A stretch of DNA of 64,000 bases, from the NCBI RefSeq assembly GCF_030013205.1, contig NZ_CP122649.1. One strand, given 5' to 3'. The stretch is from Escherichia coli (lineage in GTDB: Bacteria; Pseudomonadota; Gammaproteobacteria; Enterobacterales; Enterobacteriaceae). A program made the position numbers and the translations under genes. The notes beneath the pieces were generated by a model. The model saw nothing but the letters and a program-made list of their open reading frames with translations, was not told the DNA's origin and did not search any database. Of the stretch, positions 35,629 to 60,693 are shown piece by piece (positions within the stretch are counted from its first letter, which is position 1; every line of letters starts with the position of its first letter).

Positions 35629-35679
35629 CGTTCATGCCGGTGTTACCCGGCATGGCCAGTTTCGGAAGGAAAAGTAACT

Positions 35680-36510
35680 TTAGCCTCCACGGGCCTTCTG
35701 GATTGCGTATTTCAGGGTGGCCTCGTCAACAGCGCCCGGGATGAATGACGTCGTTGCAGCGTCGGGTTTTTGCATGTTCATAATAATGAACCCTGGCGTA
35801 CCGTTAATCCCGAGAGCTTCCCCCAGCTGCATGTTTCCGGAGATAACGTTCTCATAGCGGCTTTTCTCCCGATCGCCGAATGAGCTGTTGAACCCGGATT
35901 TGTTCACAACCATGTCTAAATCATTGAGTGTAAACGCACGCTGGTTGTTGAAGAATACATACGCACTGGTCATCAGATTGTTGTGATACTTACGATACGC
36001 TTCCGCACCGAATGTCTGATACACATGCAGGCCTGTCGCCGCCCCCATTGCGGAAACAGGTTTTGAGCCAGCGAAGATCGGAAATTCTTTAAAGAAGAAC
36101 TTTACATCAGTGCTTTGGCTCAACACAGATTCAACAACCGGCGCTACCTGCATACAGAAATGACACTGGTAGTCGAAAAACTCAATAACAGCGACGGCCG
36201 CATTATCAGGTCCGATATTGGGTGTCTCTTTGGTCTCGAAGAGTGCCGGTGCGTAGGGGATAATCCGCTCAAGGGAAGCGTTAGTATTTTCTTTTTCTAG
36301 CGCCTTACCTGCTTCGAGAAGATACTGGGGATTTTTTACCAGATAGGAAGCAGCTACTCGTCCTATTTCGTCGTTACCCGGTACATCGGGTTTTAGATAT
36401 TTCGACGTAATATACACAGAGCCAGCCGTCGCAATCACCGCAGAAATTAAAACAGACGCCACGGGTTTTAAATAATTTAATTTAATCATAGCCACCTTTA
36501 CGCATTTCAA
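35680..36510 (-). CDS. DsbA-like thiol:disulfide oxidoreductase (thioredoxin fold, CHFC)
   Basis: FDYQCHFCMQ active-site motif; N-terminal hydrophobic segment. Confidence 0.7.
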   Translation of the reverse strand: MKCVKVAMIKLNYLKPVASVLISAVIATAGSVYITSKYLKPDVPGNDEIGRVAASYLVKNPQYLLEAGKALEKENTNASLERIIPYAPALFETKETPNIGPDNAAVAVIEFFDYQCHFCMQVAPVVESVLSQSTDVKFFFKEFPIFAGSKPVSAMGAATGLHVYQTFGAEAYRKYHNNLMTSAYVFFNNQRAFTLNDLDMVVNKSGFNSSFGDREKSRYENVISGNMQLGEALGINGTPGFIIMNMQKPDAATTSFIPGAVDEATLKYAIQKARGG

Positions 36511-36595
36511 CTTGTTAGTTATCAGCCTGCGTTCGATTATACTGGCACGGTATATCGGAATTATTCATTAAAGAACCCTTTTTGGAGGATTTAGA

Positions 36596-37207
36596 ATGTT
36601 ACGGCAATTTTTCTTACTAACAGCCACAACGTTCTTATGTGGATGCGGTTATCATTTTGGAAATGACGTTGATGCGTACGATTTACTGCCCCGCCCGGTA
36701 GGCAGCAAGAAATTTGAAATTGTTGCTCCGGATGACAGTATTCAGTCGCGAATGTTTGCAGCCCGGTTTGCGAGCGGATTAACGGGTAAGGGGTTTAATA
36801 TTTCCAGCCATCAGCCCGAATATATTCTCAGATTCAGTTACAGCAAGACCCAGGAGAATCTGCAATACAGTGAACTACCGGTGACGGGAATAACCGGATA
36901 TGTTATCGAGAAGAAAACAACGCGAAAAGATAAGCACGGGCAAACTGAGACGGACTATGACTATAAGCCGGTCAGTGGGATCGTAGGAACAGAGACGGTA
37001 TCACAAAGACATTTCTGGCGTCGTCTTGATGTGGAAGTCTACCCTGCGGGAAAAAATGCACAGCAGGTGCTAAAAGTCAGTATGCAGAGCAATGCGCCGA
37101 TCCCATCGGACAGCGTGGCGTATTCCGCAATGATTGACGCTTTGACCGGGAATCTGGATGCCCCGCTGCGCTCCGGAAACTACGTCGCCTCGGTCCCCTG
37201 GAACTGA
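36596..37207 (+). CDS. hypothetical lipoprotein
   Basis: Signal peptide with lipobox (LTATTFLCGCG). Confidence 0.55.
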   Translation: MLRQFFLLTATTFLCGCGYHFGNDVDAYDLLPRPVGSKKFEIVAPDDSIQSRMFAARFASGLTGKGFNISSHQPEYILRFSYSKTQENLQYSELPVTGITGYVIEKKTTRKDKHGQTETDYDYKPVSGIVGTETVSQRHFWRRLDVEVYPAGKNAQQVLKVSMQSNAPIPSDSVAYSAMIDALTGNLDAPLRSGNYVASVPWN

Positions 37208-37265
37208 TGACCGGCACTGTAACGACCAACCACAAATTAACTTTTCTCACCTGCATGCCACGTCT

Positions 37266-37688
37266 TTACCGGCCTCCTCTGTTGAAATCATAGAGTCGGT
37301 ACAGATCACCGATGGTCAGCTCATCCACTTTGGTCACGAAGAGATATTCAAACTGAGCTTTCTGAATATCTGAGACTGACGCATCGTCCAGCACCGTTTG
37401 GTAAAATTTGGCATTGATACATCTTTCCGGATGCATGAACTGGTACCGCCCCTGGAGCACCACCATCAGAAAGATCAATATCAGCAGAACGAGAAGTAAC
37501 ATCTGGTTGGAAAGATCCAGTCCCAGCGACACACCAATGGTTGCCATGAAACAGAGAGTCCATCCCACCAGGGCGTAAGGAGCCTTTTGGATCTTTTGTT
37601 GGTAATAACGGAGGATCACCGGATCATTTAAATACCGCTTATCCGGCAATCCCGTTGCCCGGGTGACAATGCTGAGCCAAAGCGACAT
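37266..37688 (-). CDS. hypothetical membrane protein, 140 aa
   Basis: Track ORF with two hydrophobic segments. Confidence 0.45.
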   Translation of the reverse strand: MSLWLSIVTRATGLPDKRYLNDPVILRYYQQKIQKAPYALVGWTLCFMATIGVSLGLDLSNQMLLLVLLILIFLMVVLQGRYQFMHPERCINAKFYQTVLDDASVSDIQKAQFEYLFVTKVDELTIGDLYRLYDFNRGGR

Positions 37689-37710
37689 CTTCTAACCCCC
37701 AGCGACGCAC

Positions 37711-58866: not shown

Positions 58867-59595
58867 ATGGATGCAATTTTGATGGTGTGGCGAGTGATAG
58901 GAATCAGCATTATTGTCCTAGCACTCATTGTGCTTTACTGCCTGATGGGATTTGTATCGTCGGCCATTGCTGAACGCAGGACAGCCAGACAGATTGAAAT
59001 ATACCTGCCTGATGATGCAGAAGGGCTTCTGAGCGACTTAACGCTGCCGGTCAATGCCACCGGCACCACGCAGATTGATCACGTTCTTATCGCCTCTCAT
59101 GGACTCTACGTCATCGAGCAGAAGAACTATGCAGGAAAGCTCTATGGGAAGCTGGAGGAGAGCCACTGGCGAAAATGGAAATCGTCAGGGACACTAAAGT
59201 TACAAAACCCGTTCAGGCAGAACTACGGGCACATAAGGGCCATTCAGTCCACGTTACGCGCCAGCGAGCTGGAGTGTATCAATGTTGTCATCATTAACGG
59301 CCCCTGCAAGTTTGAAGGTGAGAAGCCAGACTGGCTTTGCATGGGTATGGAGGAGTTCGTTCGGAAAGTCACTGAGAGGCGCCAGTTAAATGTATTCAAG
59401 CCTGAAGCAGTAAGTTTTATCCGTGGAGAGCTGAAGCTAAAGAGAAAGCCTCCGGGCCTTTATACTGATTTGAACCATATCCACAACGTTACCACTCGAT
59501 ACAAAACAACCATGCGGCTGGAGCAGCGTATTACCTATAACCTTTTGCGCTTTTCTCGGCTTATACTGAGTAAAATGTTCAGATCGGCAAAGTAA
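58867..59595 (+). CDS. NERD-domain (nuclease-related) membrane-anchored protein
   Basis: N-terminal TM; NERD-like core QIDHVLIASHGLYVIEQKNYAGKLYG...LQNPFRQNYGHIRAI; starts 2 bp after the peptidase stop. Confidence 0.65.
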   Translation: MDAILMVWRVIGISIIVLALIVLYCLMGFVSSAIAERRTARQIEIYLPDDAEGLLSDLTLPVNATGTTQIDHVLIASHGLYVIEQKNYAGKLYGKLEESHWRKWKSSGTLKLQNPFRQNYGHIRAIQSTLRASELECINVVIINGPCKFEGEKPDWLCMGMEEFVRKVTERRQLNVFKPEAVSFIRGELKLKRKPPGLYTDLNHIHNVTTRYKTTMRLEQRITYNLLRFSRLILSKMFRSAK

Positions 59596-59597
59596 AA

Positions 59598-59625
59598 AAA
59601 ACCCTGCAAATGCGGGGTTTTTTAT
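59598..59625. terminator. bidirectional rho-independent terminator between convergent operons
   Basis: A-run, stem CCCTGCA / TGCGGGG, T-run. Confidence 0.65.
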
Positions 59626-59978
59626 GGATTCAACTCCGGAATATTTTGCCACGCTTCCTGCATAATTCGCATGGCCTCCCCAATCGATAGAGACGGCCAT
59701 AAAGCGGCGTCAGTCATTTTTACGCCAACCGGCTCACATTCGATAGGGACAAGAATTAAAACAACGCGAGTCCCTTTTATCTTATACCCGAGATTGACTA
59801 CCGGCTGTCTGTAGGTAGCCAGAACTCCTGCACCGTACTCCGCAGGTTTGCTGGCCCAGCTCCGCACCAGAGCGTAAGCCTGCGGCATATAGCGATTATC
59901 CAGATCTCCCTGCGGCCGACGAAAAGGCACGATGTCATCGGAACGGTAAGTAGTGGTGGTTACGTTTGCCGTTGTCAT
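59622..59978 (-). CDS. hypothetical protein, 118 aa
   Basis: Track ORF; last gene of the minus-strand small-gene block. Confidence 0.45.
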   Translation of the reverse strand: MTTANVTTTTYRSDDIVPFRRPQGDLDNRYMPQAYALVRSWASKPAEYGAGVLATYRQPVVNLGYKIKGTRVVLILVPIECEPVGVKMTDAALWPSLSIGEAMRIMQEAWQNIPELNP

Positions 59979-60064
59979 TAATCAACTCCTCGCATCCGAC
60001 TTTATTGAATCTGAAAGTAAAGGGTTTCACGATCAGTTCCCAATCGTGGACACTGATAGTGTGG

Positions 60065-60379
60065 CTAGAATTTTTGCTCCATTTGTTGAGCTTCAAAATC
60101 TCTTGCAGCCTTCAAGAGTGACCCGCCACTGTAGTACTCCAGTTCAGAAATATCATCCTCTTTATTCAACCATTGTGGGGCGGCTTCATTGCCGGTCTTA
60201 CCTGTACCCACATCGCTATTATGGCTTCGAGGCATCACTACGGCTTCCACTTCTTGATAAACGCCATTGCGTTTCACTAGGATATTAACTGTTTTCGGTT
60301 TGCTGTACTTTTCGCGGACTTTATTAACCAGATATAGAACGATAATCCAGCCCACCAGCACGTAAAGAAAAGTATTCAT
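60065..60379 (-). CDS. hypothetical membrane protein, 104 aa
   Basis: N-terminal TM helix (FLYVLVGWIIVLYLV). Confidence 0.45.
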   Translation of the reverse strand: MNTFLYVLVGWIIVLYLVNKVREKYSKPKTVNILVKRNGVYQEVEAVVMPRSHNSDVGTGKTGNEAAPQWLNKEDDISELEYYSGGSLLKAARDFEAQQMEQKF

Positions 60380-60693
60380 ATGCCCTCCTTTGTATGAGTC
60401 TACTATACCAGGTTCCGTTCCAGCCCAAATAGGTTCAGTGCATGAAAAATAGGCTTTCCCGTCCGAATCTGCAAATCCACTCTGGCGTGCCTTTGCTGCC
60501 CTGCGTGAGATTTTCTTTCCGGTTGCGTATGACAGATTCCGTAAAGTTACTTTCTATCCGTCTTGATTAAAACCAGATCCTCTGACTTCACCATCCACCA
60601 GCCAGAACCACGGACGCAAAACCATTACGAAAAAATCCGTCAACTTTACCCCCTGTCGATAGCCCCCCGACAATCGGGTGCCTGCACCCTGTA

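Follow-up and report, generated by a model that had tools for sequence, protein, structure and literature searches.

A short palindrome dispersed over IncHI plasmid backbones is most likely a ParB/KorB-type site network

The 64,000-nucleotide stretch of Escherichia coli DNA analyzed here (the window) is part of an IncHI1 plasmid, with accessory DNA at 1-32 kb, and it raises the question of what reads a short palindrome that recurs in the remaining part. An initial annotation noted 15-bp copies confined to the transfer region and read them as a likely operator set of a dedicated DNA-binding protein, or else a plasmid-specific silencing or partition-like mark. We find that these sites are genuine, that selection at the DNA level maintains them, that they extend over the whole backbone with a bias toward intergenic DNA, and that the plasmids encode ParB-fold HTH proteins with the motif upstream of their own genes in a conserved layout. 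Comparison with known systems indicates that the motif is most likely a dispersed site network of the ParB/KorB type.

The palindrome, AAAAGT-W-ACTTTT, spans 13 bases in a 6-1-6 arrangement that suits an HTH dimer; its information lies in the 11-mer core AAAGTWACTTT, and beyond about 15 bp there is no conservation around it. Since the flanks carry no information, we rejected the idea that the palindrome is part of a longer mobile repeat. Nor do we read it as an RNA or terminator hairpin, for which a 6-1-6 palindrome has no useful fold; a genuine terminator-like hairpin lies near 40401-40432 but is distinct from the sites. All 12 window copies of the core AAAGTNACTTT fall in the 35.6-60.6 kb interval; 0.09 copies would be expected, and none of 100 shuffles produced more than one (a comparison that the initial annotation had called for). 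Six of the sites are exact 13-mers (AAAAGTNACTTTT; 0.01 expected) (Table 1). The motif was present at all ten positions originally given, and the core count adds two missed sites, at 39928 and 48463. The short palindrome is therefore real, but the full 15-mer GAAAAGTNACTTTTC is matched by only two window sites (40286 and 49386). The reported absence from the first 35 kb was also confirmed: no copy within one mismatch lies at 1-35 kb, where the lone two-mismatch match is at position 15248. Equally sound were the contexts described for the copies flanking the oriT repeat array (48902 and 49387) and for those inside and at the end of the coupling-protein gene (54123 and 55853, respectively). The motif had not been recognized as a described one, and we likewise found no publication on it in the literature searched, although an older mention is possible.

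Table 1. Palindrome sites and the oriT array in the window, and the two ParB-family candidates encoded elsewhere (mismatches are relative to the 13-mer)
Feature	Coordinates	Sequence and match	Location	IncHI2 counterpart
Site	35670..35682	AAAAGTAACTTTA; core exact, one outer mismatch	Between convergent 3' ends of mucB/umuC-like gene and dsbA; overlaps dsbA stop codon	Nearly conserved: GAAAGTAACTTTA
Site	38124..38136	GAAAGTCACTTTT; one outer mismatch	Short spacer between dsbC-like gene (38129-38878, minus) and next minus-strand gene	Exact 13-mer
Site	39927..39939	TAAAGTCACTTTT	Inside HAD-domain gene; absent from initial annotation	Not conserved at orthologous position
Site	40205..40217	AAAAGTAACTTTT; exact	Directly 3' of HAD-domain gene stop codon	
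Site	40287..40299	Exact, with full 15-mer GAAAAGTTACTTTTC	Between convergent ends of HAD gene and trhG	
Site	45824..45836	Exact	Within trhF/trhH overlap, ~30 nt into trhH	Conserved; flank identity 73%
Site	48462..48474	CAAAGTTACTTTT	Inside trhR; absent from initial annotation	Exact 13-mer
Site	48902..48914	Exact	~75 bp upstream of annotated trhR start; oriT left flank; R-operon leader/promoter region	Conserved
oriT inverted-repeat array	49150..49325	Units ATAGGGTCACTTTT-N5-AAAAGTGRCCCTAT		
Site	49387..49399	Exact, with full 15-mer	~186 bp upstream of traH/mobI; oriT array right flank; H-operon upstream region	One mismatch (at 192197)
Site	54123..54135	Exact	Inside coupling-protein gene traG (TraD family), ~290 nt from start	Identical; flank identity 72%
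Site	55853..55865	AAAAGTAACTTTG; one outer mismatch	Near coupling-protein gene 3' end, just upstream of next gene	Conserved
Site	60542..60554	TAAAGTTACTTTC; core exact, two mismatches	Between two small minus-strand ORFs, edge of backbone segment	
p1 (R27 R0042)	NZ_CP022495.1 147255-148412		Orphan ParB-family protein, outside window	
p2	NZ_CP022495.1 183553-184758		Orphan ParB-family paralog, outside window	

The supposed confinement to the transfer region did not survive comparison with whole IncHI plasmids, which carry the motif over their entire backbone. In the four complete plasmids compared (a check on related plasmids that had also been proposed), core copies number 47 in IncHI1 (after removal of an assembly duplicate), 49 in IncHI2, 89 in pKAM645_1 and 76 in pA708-1, with about 0.4 expected per plasmid. 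Backbone DNA holds 50 sites in 176 kb versus 2 in 61 kb of accessory DNA, and the sites are found in the replication, maintenance, Tra1 and Tra2 parts of the backbone as well as among numerous small genes of unknown function. In a de novo census covering the IncHI1 and IncHI2 plasmids plus 40-kb regions of the two Klebsiella plasmids, no other palindrome came close to this one, and 19 palindromes with permuted halves gave 7 matches in total. When 100,044 species genomes were scanned for two motif copies 20-50 bp apart, Klebsiella grimontii was the only genome with the dispersed pattern, the remaining 24 matches being tandem arrays in unrelated AT-rich taxa.

Ten of the 13 exact IncHI1 sites are also exact at the orthologous IncHI2 position, within flanks that are 66-80% identical (probability of such retention, 7e-17 to 6e-10), and the conserved intragenic sites include those in traG, trhI, trhU, trhH and a Tus-like gene. 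An origin of the motif by chance from AT-rich composition, or as a dispersed mobile repeat, has a negligible probability: the motif is AT-rich, but it is enriched at least 100-fold over shuffles and permuted palindromes and is kept at orthologous positions in diverged plasmids, and unconserved flanks argue against a mobile repeat. With the census added, we consider chance and composition to be ruled out. In the 89-site Klebsiella plasmid, 52 sites (58%) are fully intergenic versus 20.6% unannotated DNA (P = 7e-15). A simple operator model does not account for the ~40-45% of sites that fall within genes or where two genes converge at their 3' ends. Neither a -10 nor a -35 element was found at a constant offset from the sites, and scans for consensus promoters around oriT were uninformative.

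Which protein, then, occupies these sites? Among the binders first proposed, the products of 48027-48854 and 47512-48030 are TrhR and TrhY, known tra activators, and that of 49585-50070 is the oriT accessory protein MobI/TraH. That the sites are operators of one of these, or of HtdA, is in keeping with the copies upstream of trhR, traH and trhA and on both flanks of oriT, with the influence of HtdA and TrhR/TrhY on most R27 genes, and with the recurrence of the half-site in the arms of the oriT repeats. We nevertheless find this very doubtful. The TrhR/TrhY-dependent F promoter lacks a copy of the motif (none occurs at window 46900-47512, the region of that promoter, where an FlhDC/AcaCD-like box of TrhR/TrhY would have to lie), and overexpression of TrhR/TrhY activates a chromosomal F-promoter fusion even though the reporter lacks any site. 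The predicted structure of TrhY resembles FlhC, which suggests an activator of the FlhDC/AcaCD type and not a protein that reads a 13-bp palindrome. NCBIfam and Pfam gave nothing significant for TrhR, TrhY, MobI and the next ORF. The idea of a dedicated operator set thus stands only in part; the enrichment, the DNA-level conservation and the intergenic bias fit it, but the marking of the transfer region and the proposed binders do not, and ParB-family proteins are better candidates.

A profile of two such proteins, p1 and p2 (Table 1), and their relatives matched Spo0J/ParB/Noc in the PDB (E = 3.5e-9) over a span covering the GxxRxxA box and the HTH. Pfam HTH_ParB matched p1, and the best PDB match of the p2 model in Foldseek was RK2 KorB (8qa9; E = 1.8e-8, TM 0.64). 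An RQGxCRxRA motif is conserved. Of the ParB motifs for CTP binding and hydrolysis, GERRxRA has a GxxRxxA-like counterpart in this family, whereas ENLQR has lost its glutamate (DGN), which makes CTP hydrolysis uncertain. In IncHI1, IncHI2, a Yersinia contig and a fourth lineage, p2 is preceded by a pair of sites at ~100 and ~215 bp (five sites precede it in pKAM645_1), and in IncHI1 and IncHI2 the proximal site is just 3' of a conserved promoter-like TTTAAA-N-TA(C/G)TAT. One conserved site lies ~100 bp upstream of p1 in all four plasmids. No ParA was found adjacent to p1 or p2. The recognition helices of p1 and p2 differ, so both are unlikely to read one sequence. That of p2 is the better conserved, whereas that of p1 differs considerably between IncHI1 and Klebsiella plasmids even though the motif is identical; pA708-1 has its 76 sites without p2.

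We propose, with a probability of roughly 0.6, that the palindrome is the site of a backbone-encoded dimeric HTH protein, likeliest p1 and/or p2, with a KorB-like plasmid-wide role. On the model of RK2 KorB, Shigella VirB, ICEclc BisD and IncC ParB, one or both proteins would bind or load at the 50-90 dispersed sites and, from there, would act on adjacent DNA, either by promoter occupancy or by spreading or sliding. The outcome would be coordinated control of backbone transcription, taking in the R, H and AC transfer promoters, the protein's own gene and many small genes, and the bound protein may have an extra role in organizing plasmid DNA. The identity of the binder, its use of CTP and the outcome (repression, anti-silencing or DNA organization) are what we infer here. 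R0042 belongs to the R27 genes with the highest expression, and loss of htdA derepresses 139 of the 181 expressed R27 genes, those that do not respond being transposons, cit, tet, parAB and mucAB (PMC7366339). In a qualitative comparison, the HtdA-unresponsive genes proved to have no motif nearby, the one exception being the site where mucB and dsbA meet at their 3' ends.

IncC (A/C2) plasmids, which like IncHI have a MOBH relaxase and an F-type mating-pair system, carry 14 dispersed parS sites bound by ParB (PMC10954446). These palindromes too are scattered over the backbone, mostly intergenic and in some cases intragenic, and some stand beside promoters that depend on the master activator. 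Another adjoins an orphan parB-like gene, a homolog of p1 and p2; this site belongs to the set of the partition ParB, binding having been shown for other members (PMC10954446). Because the IncC site next to the orphan gene is assigned to the partition ParB, an upstream site is no proof of autoregulation. Following this precedent, the IncHI sites could be dispersed parS sites of Par1 ParA/ParB (R27 R0019), with regulatory effects being secondary; Par1 ParB occurs in all four motif-bearing plasmids (46% identity), and the RepHI1A-type replicon has site clusters nearby. However, we think this quite unlikely. In IncC, the partition ParB binds a parS (core TTTCACATGTGAAA) that lies in the parA promoter, whereas none of the four IncHI-type plasmids has a site near parAB, and IncHI parA encodes a long type Ia ParA. 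Moreover, Par1 parAB adjoins tandem arrays of 1.2-1.6 kb that differ by lineage, like sopC-like centromeres or incompatibility determinants, whereas the 13-mer is identical across compatible IncHI subgroups, and R27 parAB expression responds to neither HtdA nor temperature. The number of IncHI sites is 4-6 times that of IncC.

It is also conceivable, if somewhat unlikely, that the binder is a host protein or some further small protein of the IncHI backbone, or that the sites function as DNA with no binder of their own. Many backbone ORFs are uncharacterized, and the geometry of the sites relative to promoters is not fixed, both of which leave room for such explanations. We know of no enterobacterial regulator with an AAAAGT-W-ACTTTT consensus. 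Against these explanations, accessory DNA in the same hosts is nearly free of the motif, and neither RNA nor single-stranded DNA could make a useful hairpin from a 6-1-6 palindrome. The paired sites conserved in front of the ParB-like genes point instead to those genes.

The KorB-like role that we favor for p1 and/or p2 has its model in RK2. The KorB operator OB is a 13-bp palindrome (TTTAGCSGCTAAA) of the same 6-1-6 architecture, likewise dispersed over the backbone in promoter-proximal, promoter-distal and intragenic positions, and its binder is an HTH protein of the ParB-CTPase fold, to which the p2 model is closest. The two systems differ in that RK2 has 12 KorB sites versus 47-89 in IncHI, with unrelated site sequences, and in that KorB is also a partition ParB with IncC/ParA and works with KorA and TrbA, whereas the IncHI candidates are orphans. 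ICEclc BisD and Noc (NBS) are ParB-fold clamps with palindromes of their own that serve long-range gene activation (BisD) and DNA organization (Noc) rather than partition, although their hosts and site sequences differ from those of IncHI. Shigella VirB, an orphan ParB-like protein that depends on CTP, binds its virS sites, inverted repeats resembling parS, at many promoters of the virulence plasmid and relieves H-NS silencing in a regulon controlled by temperature. Silencing by H-NS/Hha and thermoregulation are also features of IncHI backbones. IncHI transfer, however, is on at low temperature rather than high, and the site sequences are again unrelated.

To judge from its repeats, the oriT array may be related to the palindrome sites. 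Its units carry the palindrome half-sites in everted order, so that the half-site first noted as common to both is confirmed, and the half-site in the repeat arms is kept in IncHI2 and also in a Klebsiella IncHI-type plasmid with different outer arms. One unlikely possibility is that p1 and p2 together form a VirB-like layer below HtdA-TrhR/TrhY; they would load, slide, and relieve or impose H-NS/Hha silencing of the backbone, and the everted oriT half-sites would tie in transfer initiation. If true, such a layer would explain the plasmid-wide derepression seen upon loss of htdA as well as the thermosensitive transfer of IncHI plasmids, and the everted half-sites would link the same ParB-like protein to the initiation of transfer.

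IncHI plasmids rank among the main carriers of multidrug resistance, with IncHI1 found in typhoid Salmonella, IncHI2 bearing mcr-1 and ESBL genes, and IncHI1B-type plasmids in Klebsiella. Their temperature-dependent transfer and low carriage cost rest on a partly understood backbone-wide silencing, on which a single conserved 13-bp site with 50-90 copies in each plasmid and two abundant ParB-like proteins offer a testable handle. The motif is a simple marker that tells backbone from acquired DNA. Decoy DNA or cloned arrays of this site, which does not vary among compatible IncHI subgroups, could thus titrate its binder in every one of these subgroups.

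The palindrome AAAAGT-W-ACTTTT, a 13-mer with 6-1-6 symmetry (AAAAGTAACTTTT when written as a single site sequence), recurs in the window. Exact copies of the 13-mer (AAAAGTNACTTTT) number 6 against 0.01 expected, and allowing up to two mismatches raises the count to 19 (4.15 expected), with 18 of these falling within 35.6-60.9 kb. Base counts at each position, taken across all the plasmid sites, place the information in the core AAAGTWACTTT. The signal weakens at the outer A/T positions, amounts to a slight G/C preference one base beyond them, and is gone further out. The window contains 12 copies of this core (0.09 expected). 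All ten sites listed in the initial annotation contain it, those at 39928 and 48463 being additional, but the 15-mer in which the palindrome had been framed is present in full only twice. The flanks of the sites were compared and no common sequence was found; the palindrome is therefore not a mobile repeat, and we ruled out this possibility.

The 32-61-kb part of the window comprises the Tra1 region and neighboring backbone of an IncHI1 plasmid (see the table). Over positions 45000-52000, identity is 100% with the Salmonella plasmid NZ_CP022495.1 and 99.8-100% with other IncHI1 plasmids. The 1-32-kb part does not map onto the backbone of NZ_CP022495.1, is heterogeneous in G+C content (about 40 to 65%), and is taken to be accessory DNA, having been read initially as resistance and citrate-utilization DNA. 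A strong terminator-like hairpin (40401-40432, minus strand; 13 pairs and then a T run) lies just 3′ of trhG, about 100 bp away from the palindrome at 40287.

Coordinates of transfer genes, candidate binders, and repeat arrays (L numbers denote comparison loci; L004 belongs to NZ_CP022495.1)
Feature	Sequence	Coordinates	Strand	Description
trhG	window	40451-44440	minus	
trhH	window	44449-45870	minus	
trhF	window	45854-46900	minus	
trhY	window	47512-48030	minus	
trhR	window	48027-48854	minus	
traH/mobI	window	49585 onward	plus	
traI	window	50758 onward	plus	MobH relaxase
traG	window	53835-55919	plus	TraD-type coupling protein
oriT array	window	49150-49325		everted half-sites
oriT array	L010	41960-42130		everted half-sites
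oriT array	L015	12680-12770		everted half-sites
p1	NZ_CP022495.1	147255-148412		orphan ParB-like
p2	NZ_CP022495.1	183553-184758		orphan ParB-like
Par1 tandem array	L004	27699-28950		53-bp units x about 24
Par1 tandem array	L007	12515-14025		249-bp units x 6
Par1 tandem array	L017	45018-46654		66-bp units x 25

Four complete plasmids were assembled and each was scanned for the core. Copies cover the entire backbone of these IncHI-type plasmids, contrary to the earlier view that they are confined to the transfer region: 52 in NZ_CP022495.1 (IncHI1; 47 without the assembly duplicate), 49 in pSTM6-275 (IncHI2; NZ_CP019647.1), 89 in the Klebsiella IncHI1B/FIB plasmid pKAM645_1 (NZ_AP026421.1), and 76 in pA708-1 (NZ_CP026369.1), a Klebsiella plasmid with an IncHI-type backbone. 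They are found in the replication, maintenance, Tra1, and Tra2 regions and in long runs of small unknown genes. On the IncHI1 plasmid, 176 kb of backbone carries 50 copies and 61 kb of accessory sequence only 2, and the 60-kb resistance region of pA708-1 has none. Given this distribution, the contrast between 0-35 and 35-60 kb of the window is one of accessory DNA versus backbone. NZ_CP022495.1 has most of Tra1 in duplicate (L002 1400-13400 versus L006 16400-28000, two loci of this plasmid), one copy having frameshifted gene calls; the duplication is probably an assembly artifact and was left out of the statistics.

In a blind census of every 5+5 and 6+6 palindrome with gaps of 0-4, the palindrome ranked first by far in the IncHI1 and IncHI2 plasmids (47-49 copies versus ~0.35 expected), and the same was true of 40-kb regions from the two Klebsiella plasmids. 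It was also top ranked, unchanged, in two more lineages, one represented by a Yersinia intermedia contig and the other by a metagenomic contig. Nineteen palindromes with permuted half-sites together gave 7 matches in pKAM645_1. As a positive control, an IncC region yielded the published IncC site, TTTCACATGTGAAA, and not the IncHI palindrome. The same 13-mer was also seen inside the units (period, 21-52 bp) of short tandem arrays in unrelated AT-rich taxa, namely, Prevotella, Lachnospiraceae, Clostridiaceae, and a cyanobacterium (comparison loci L020, L022, L029, L030, L041, and L043); these resemble the iterons or centromere arrays of other elements.

Selection acts on the sites at the DNA level. 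When IncHI1 sites with 150-bp flanks were aligned to IncHI2, 10 of the 13 alignable exact sites were exact in IncHI2, 2 had one change, and 1 was lost, in flanks that were 66-80% identical; given 70-80% identity, the probability of such retention (10/13) lies between 7e-17 and 6e-10. The conserved sites include intragenic ones in traG, trhI, trhU, trhH, and a Tus-like gene. Sites are placed preferentially between genes: in pKAM645_1, 52 of 89 are fully intergenic versus 20.6% of the plasmid unannotated (P = 7e-15), the figure being 20 of 21 in a 40-kb stretch of small codirectional genes and, by our own reading of the annotation, 14 of 26 exact sites in IncHI1. Positions 5′ of trhR, traH, the pilin gene trhA, and the two ParB-like genes recur across plasmids, as do those just 3′ of the RepHI1A-type rep gene and beside genes for Ig-like proteins. 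Numerous sites are intragenic or lie between convergent 3′ ends, and no -10 or -35 element was found at a constant distance from them. Between RepHI1A and trhA, NZ_CP022495.1 also carries three 43-bp-spaced repeats, AAAAGGCACTTTTCTGCCGCCAT (140945-141043; L004 40945-41043), that resemble iterons and match the palindrome at all but one base.

Which protein reads these sites? TrhR and TrhY, both put forward initially, activate the F, H, AC, and Z operons, and the F promoter is their standard reporter (PMC7366339). The F promoter region (window 46900-47512) contains no copy of the palindrome even at two mismatches, which argues against either as the binder. A domain search with TrhR returned no recognizable domain, and TrhY has a C-terminal CxxC...CxxC cluster. 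The third candidate, the product of 49585-50070, is MobI/TraH, an oriT accessory protein. That the oriT repeats and the palindrome have a half-site in common was borne out, with the half-sites everted (ACTTTT-N5-AAAAGT) within longer arms; these units are kept in IncHI2, and in pKAM645_1 the outer arms differ (CATTAGTACTTTT...AAAAGTACTAATG) while the inner half-sites are the same. As for the ParB of the Par1 partition system, no copy lies near the Par1 parAB operon. Each of the three plasmids examined instead has a tandem array of 1.2-1.6 kb 5′ of Par1 parA; the units differ between lineages, and the arrays are probably the Par1 centromere or an incompatibility determinant.

Two further candidates, p1 and p2, are paralogues of about 385-415 residues, each labeled a "DNA-binding protein" and encoded in the IncHI backbone with no ParA gene next to it. 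Single-sequence searches gave weak ParB signals only; a 21-sequence profile matched Spo0J/ParB/Noc (E = 3.5e-9 to 1e-5) over an arginine-rich box (RQGxCRxRA aligned to GERRxRA) and the helix-turn-helix. The AlphaFold model of p2 (pLDDT roughly 90 across most of residues 20-250) had RK2 KorB as its best PDB match (8qa9; E = 1.8e-8; TM, 0.64); CTP-bound ParB and Noc came next. Upstream of p2, IncHI1, IncHI2, the Yersinia contig, and a further (fourth) lineage each have two sites, ~100 and ~215 bp from the start codon, and pKAM645_1 has five. In IncHI1 and IncHI2, the proximal site is 12-21 nt 3′ of a conserved promoter-like TTTAAA-N-TA(C/G)TAT, a position that would suit repression. All four plasmids have a single site ~100 bp 5′ of p1, and its imperfect sequence, AAAAGTACCTTTT, is shared by IncHI1 and IncHI2. 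Conservation of the recognition helix is better in p2 (TEQHLRQMVRVL, SEQHLRQMVRVL, SVTHVRKLLKV) than in p1. pA708-1 has no p2 orthologue, yet it keeps 76 sites; p1 and Par1 ParB are present, and the pKAM645_1 segment with p2 is missing, an IS element occupying that position. The binder is probably p1 and/or p2. The segment that pA708-1 (L046-L049 with L044) lacks is ~20 kb long (L013 12500-35000 in pKAM645_1) and carries p2, a type IV CRISPR-Cas module, and umuDC; the element at that position is of the IS481 family.

The closest systems are the KorB OB operators of RK2 and the IncC parS sites. KorB operators are a mixture of promoter-proximal, distal, and intragenic sites, and the IncHI palindrome is placed like both these operators and the IncC sites; it also shares the 13-bp 6-1-6 form of OB, of which RK2 has 12 copies. 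The IncC site is a 22-bp inverted repeat that ParB binds in EMSA; its 14 copies are scattered over the backbone, several 10-25 bp from AcaCD boxes and one beside an orphan parB-like regulator, so called in published work that assigns it no binding site (PMC10954446). This orphan (IncC locus L014, 19944-20882) is a p1/p2 homologue with 31% identity. Systems of this kind are already known from RK2 and IncC. Relative to both, IncHI plasmids have 4-7 times more copies, the binder is probably an orphan and not the partition ParB, and the palindrome is missing from the par operon and identical across compatible IncHI subgroups. As initially suggested, the palindrome appears undescribed: we found no account of the motif or of p1/p2 function in the searchable literature, which does not extend to the primary R27 and R478 papers.

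In R27, R0042, annotated "partition protein," is located between the dam methylase gene R0041 and R0043 (PMC7366339) and by this position is p1; p2 is probably R0104, from its place beside flmA (R0101). R0042 belongs to the most strongly expressed genes of R27, and its expression is raised 2.7-fold at 25°C relative to 37°C and 3.4-fold when htdA is mutated. Of 181 expressed R27 genes, 139 are derepressed at 25°C when htdA is lost, the nonresponders being transposon genes, citAB, tet genes, parAB, and mucAB (PMC7366339). No palindrome lies near these nonresponding genes, except for a site at the joint 3′ ends of mucB and dsbA. The response pattern and the site distribution together agree with a backbone-wide control layer, which the palindrome may mediate; the identity of the binder, any use of CTP, and the regulatory outcome are inferred. 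Orphan ParB-like clamps such as VirB of Shigella and BisD of ICEclc can be antisilencers or long-range activators, and the effect on IncHI plasmids therefore may run in either direction.
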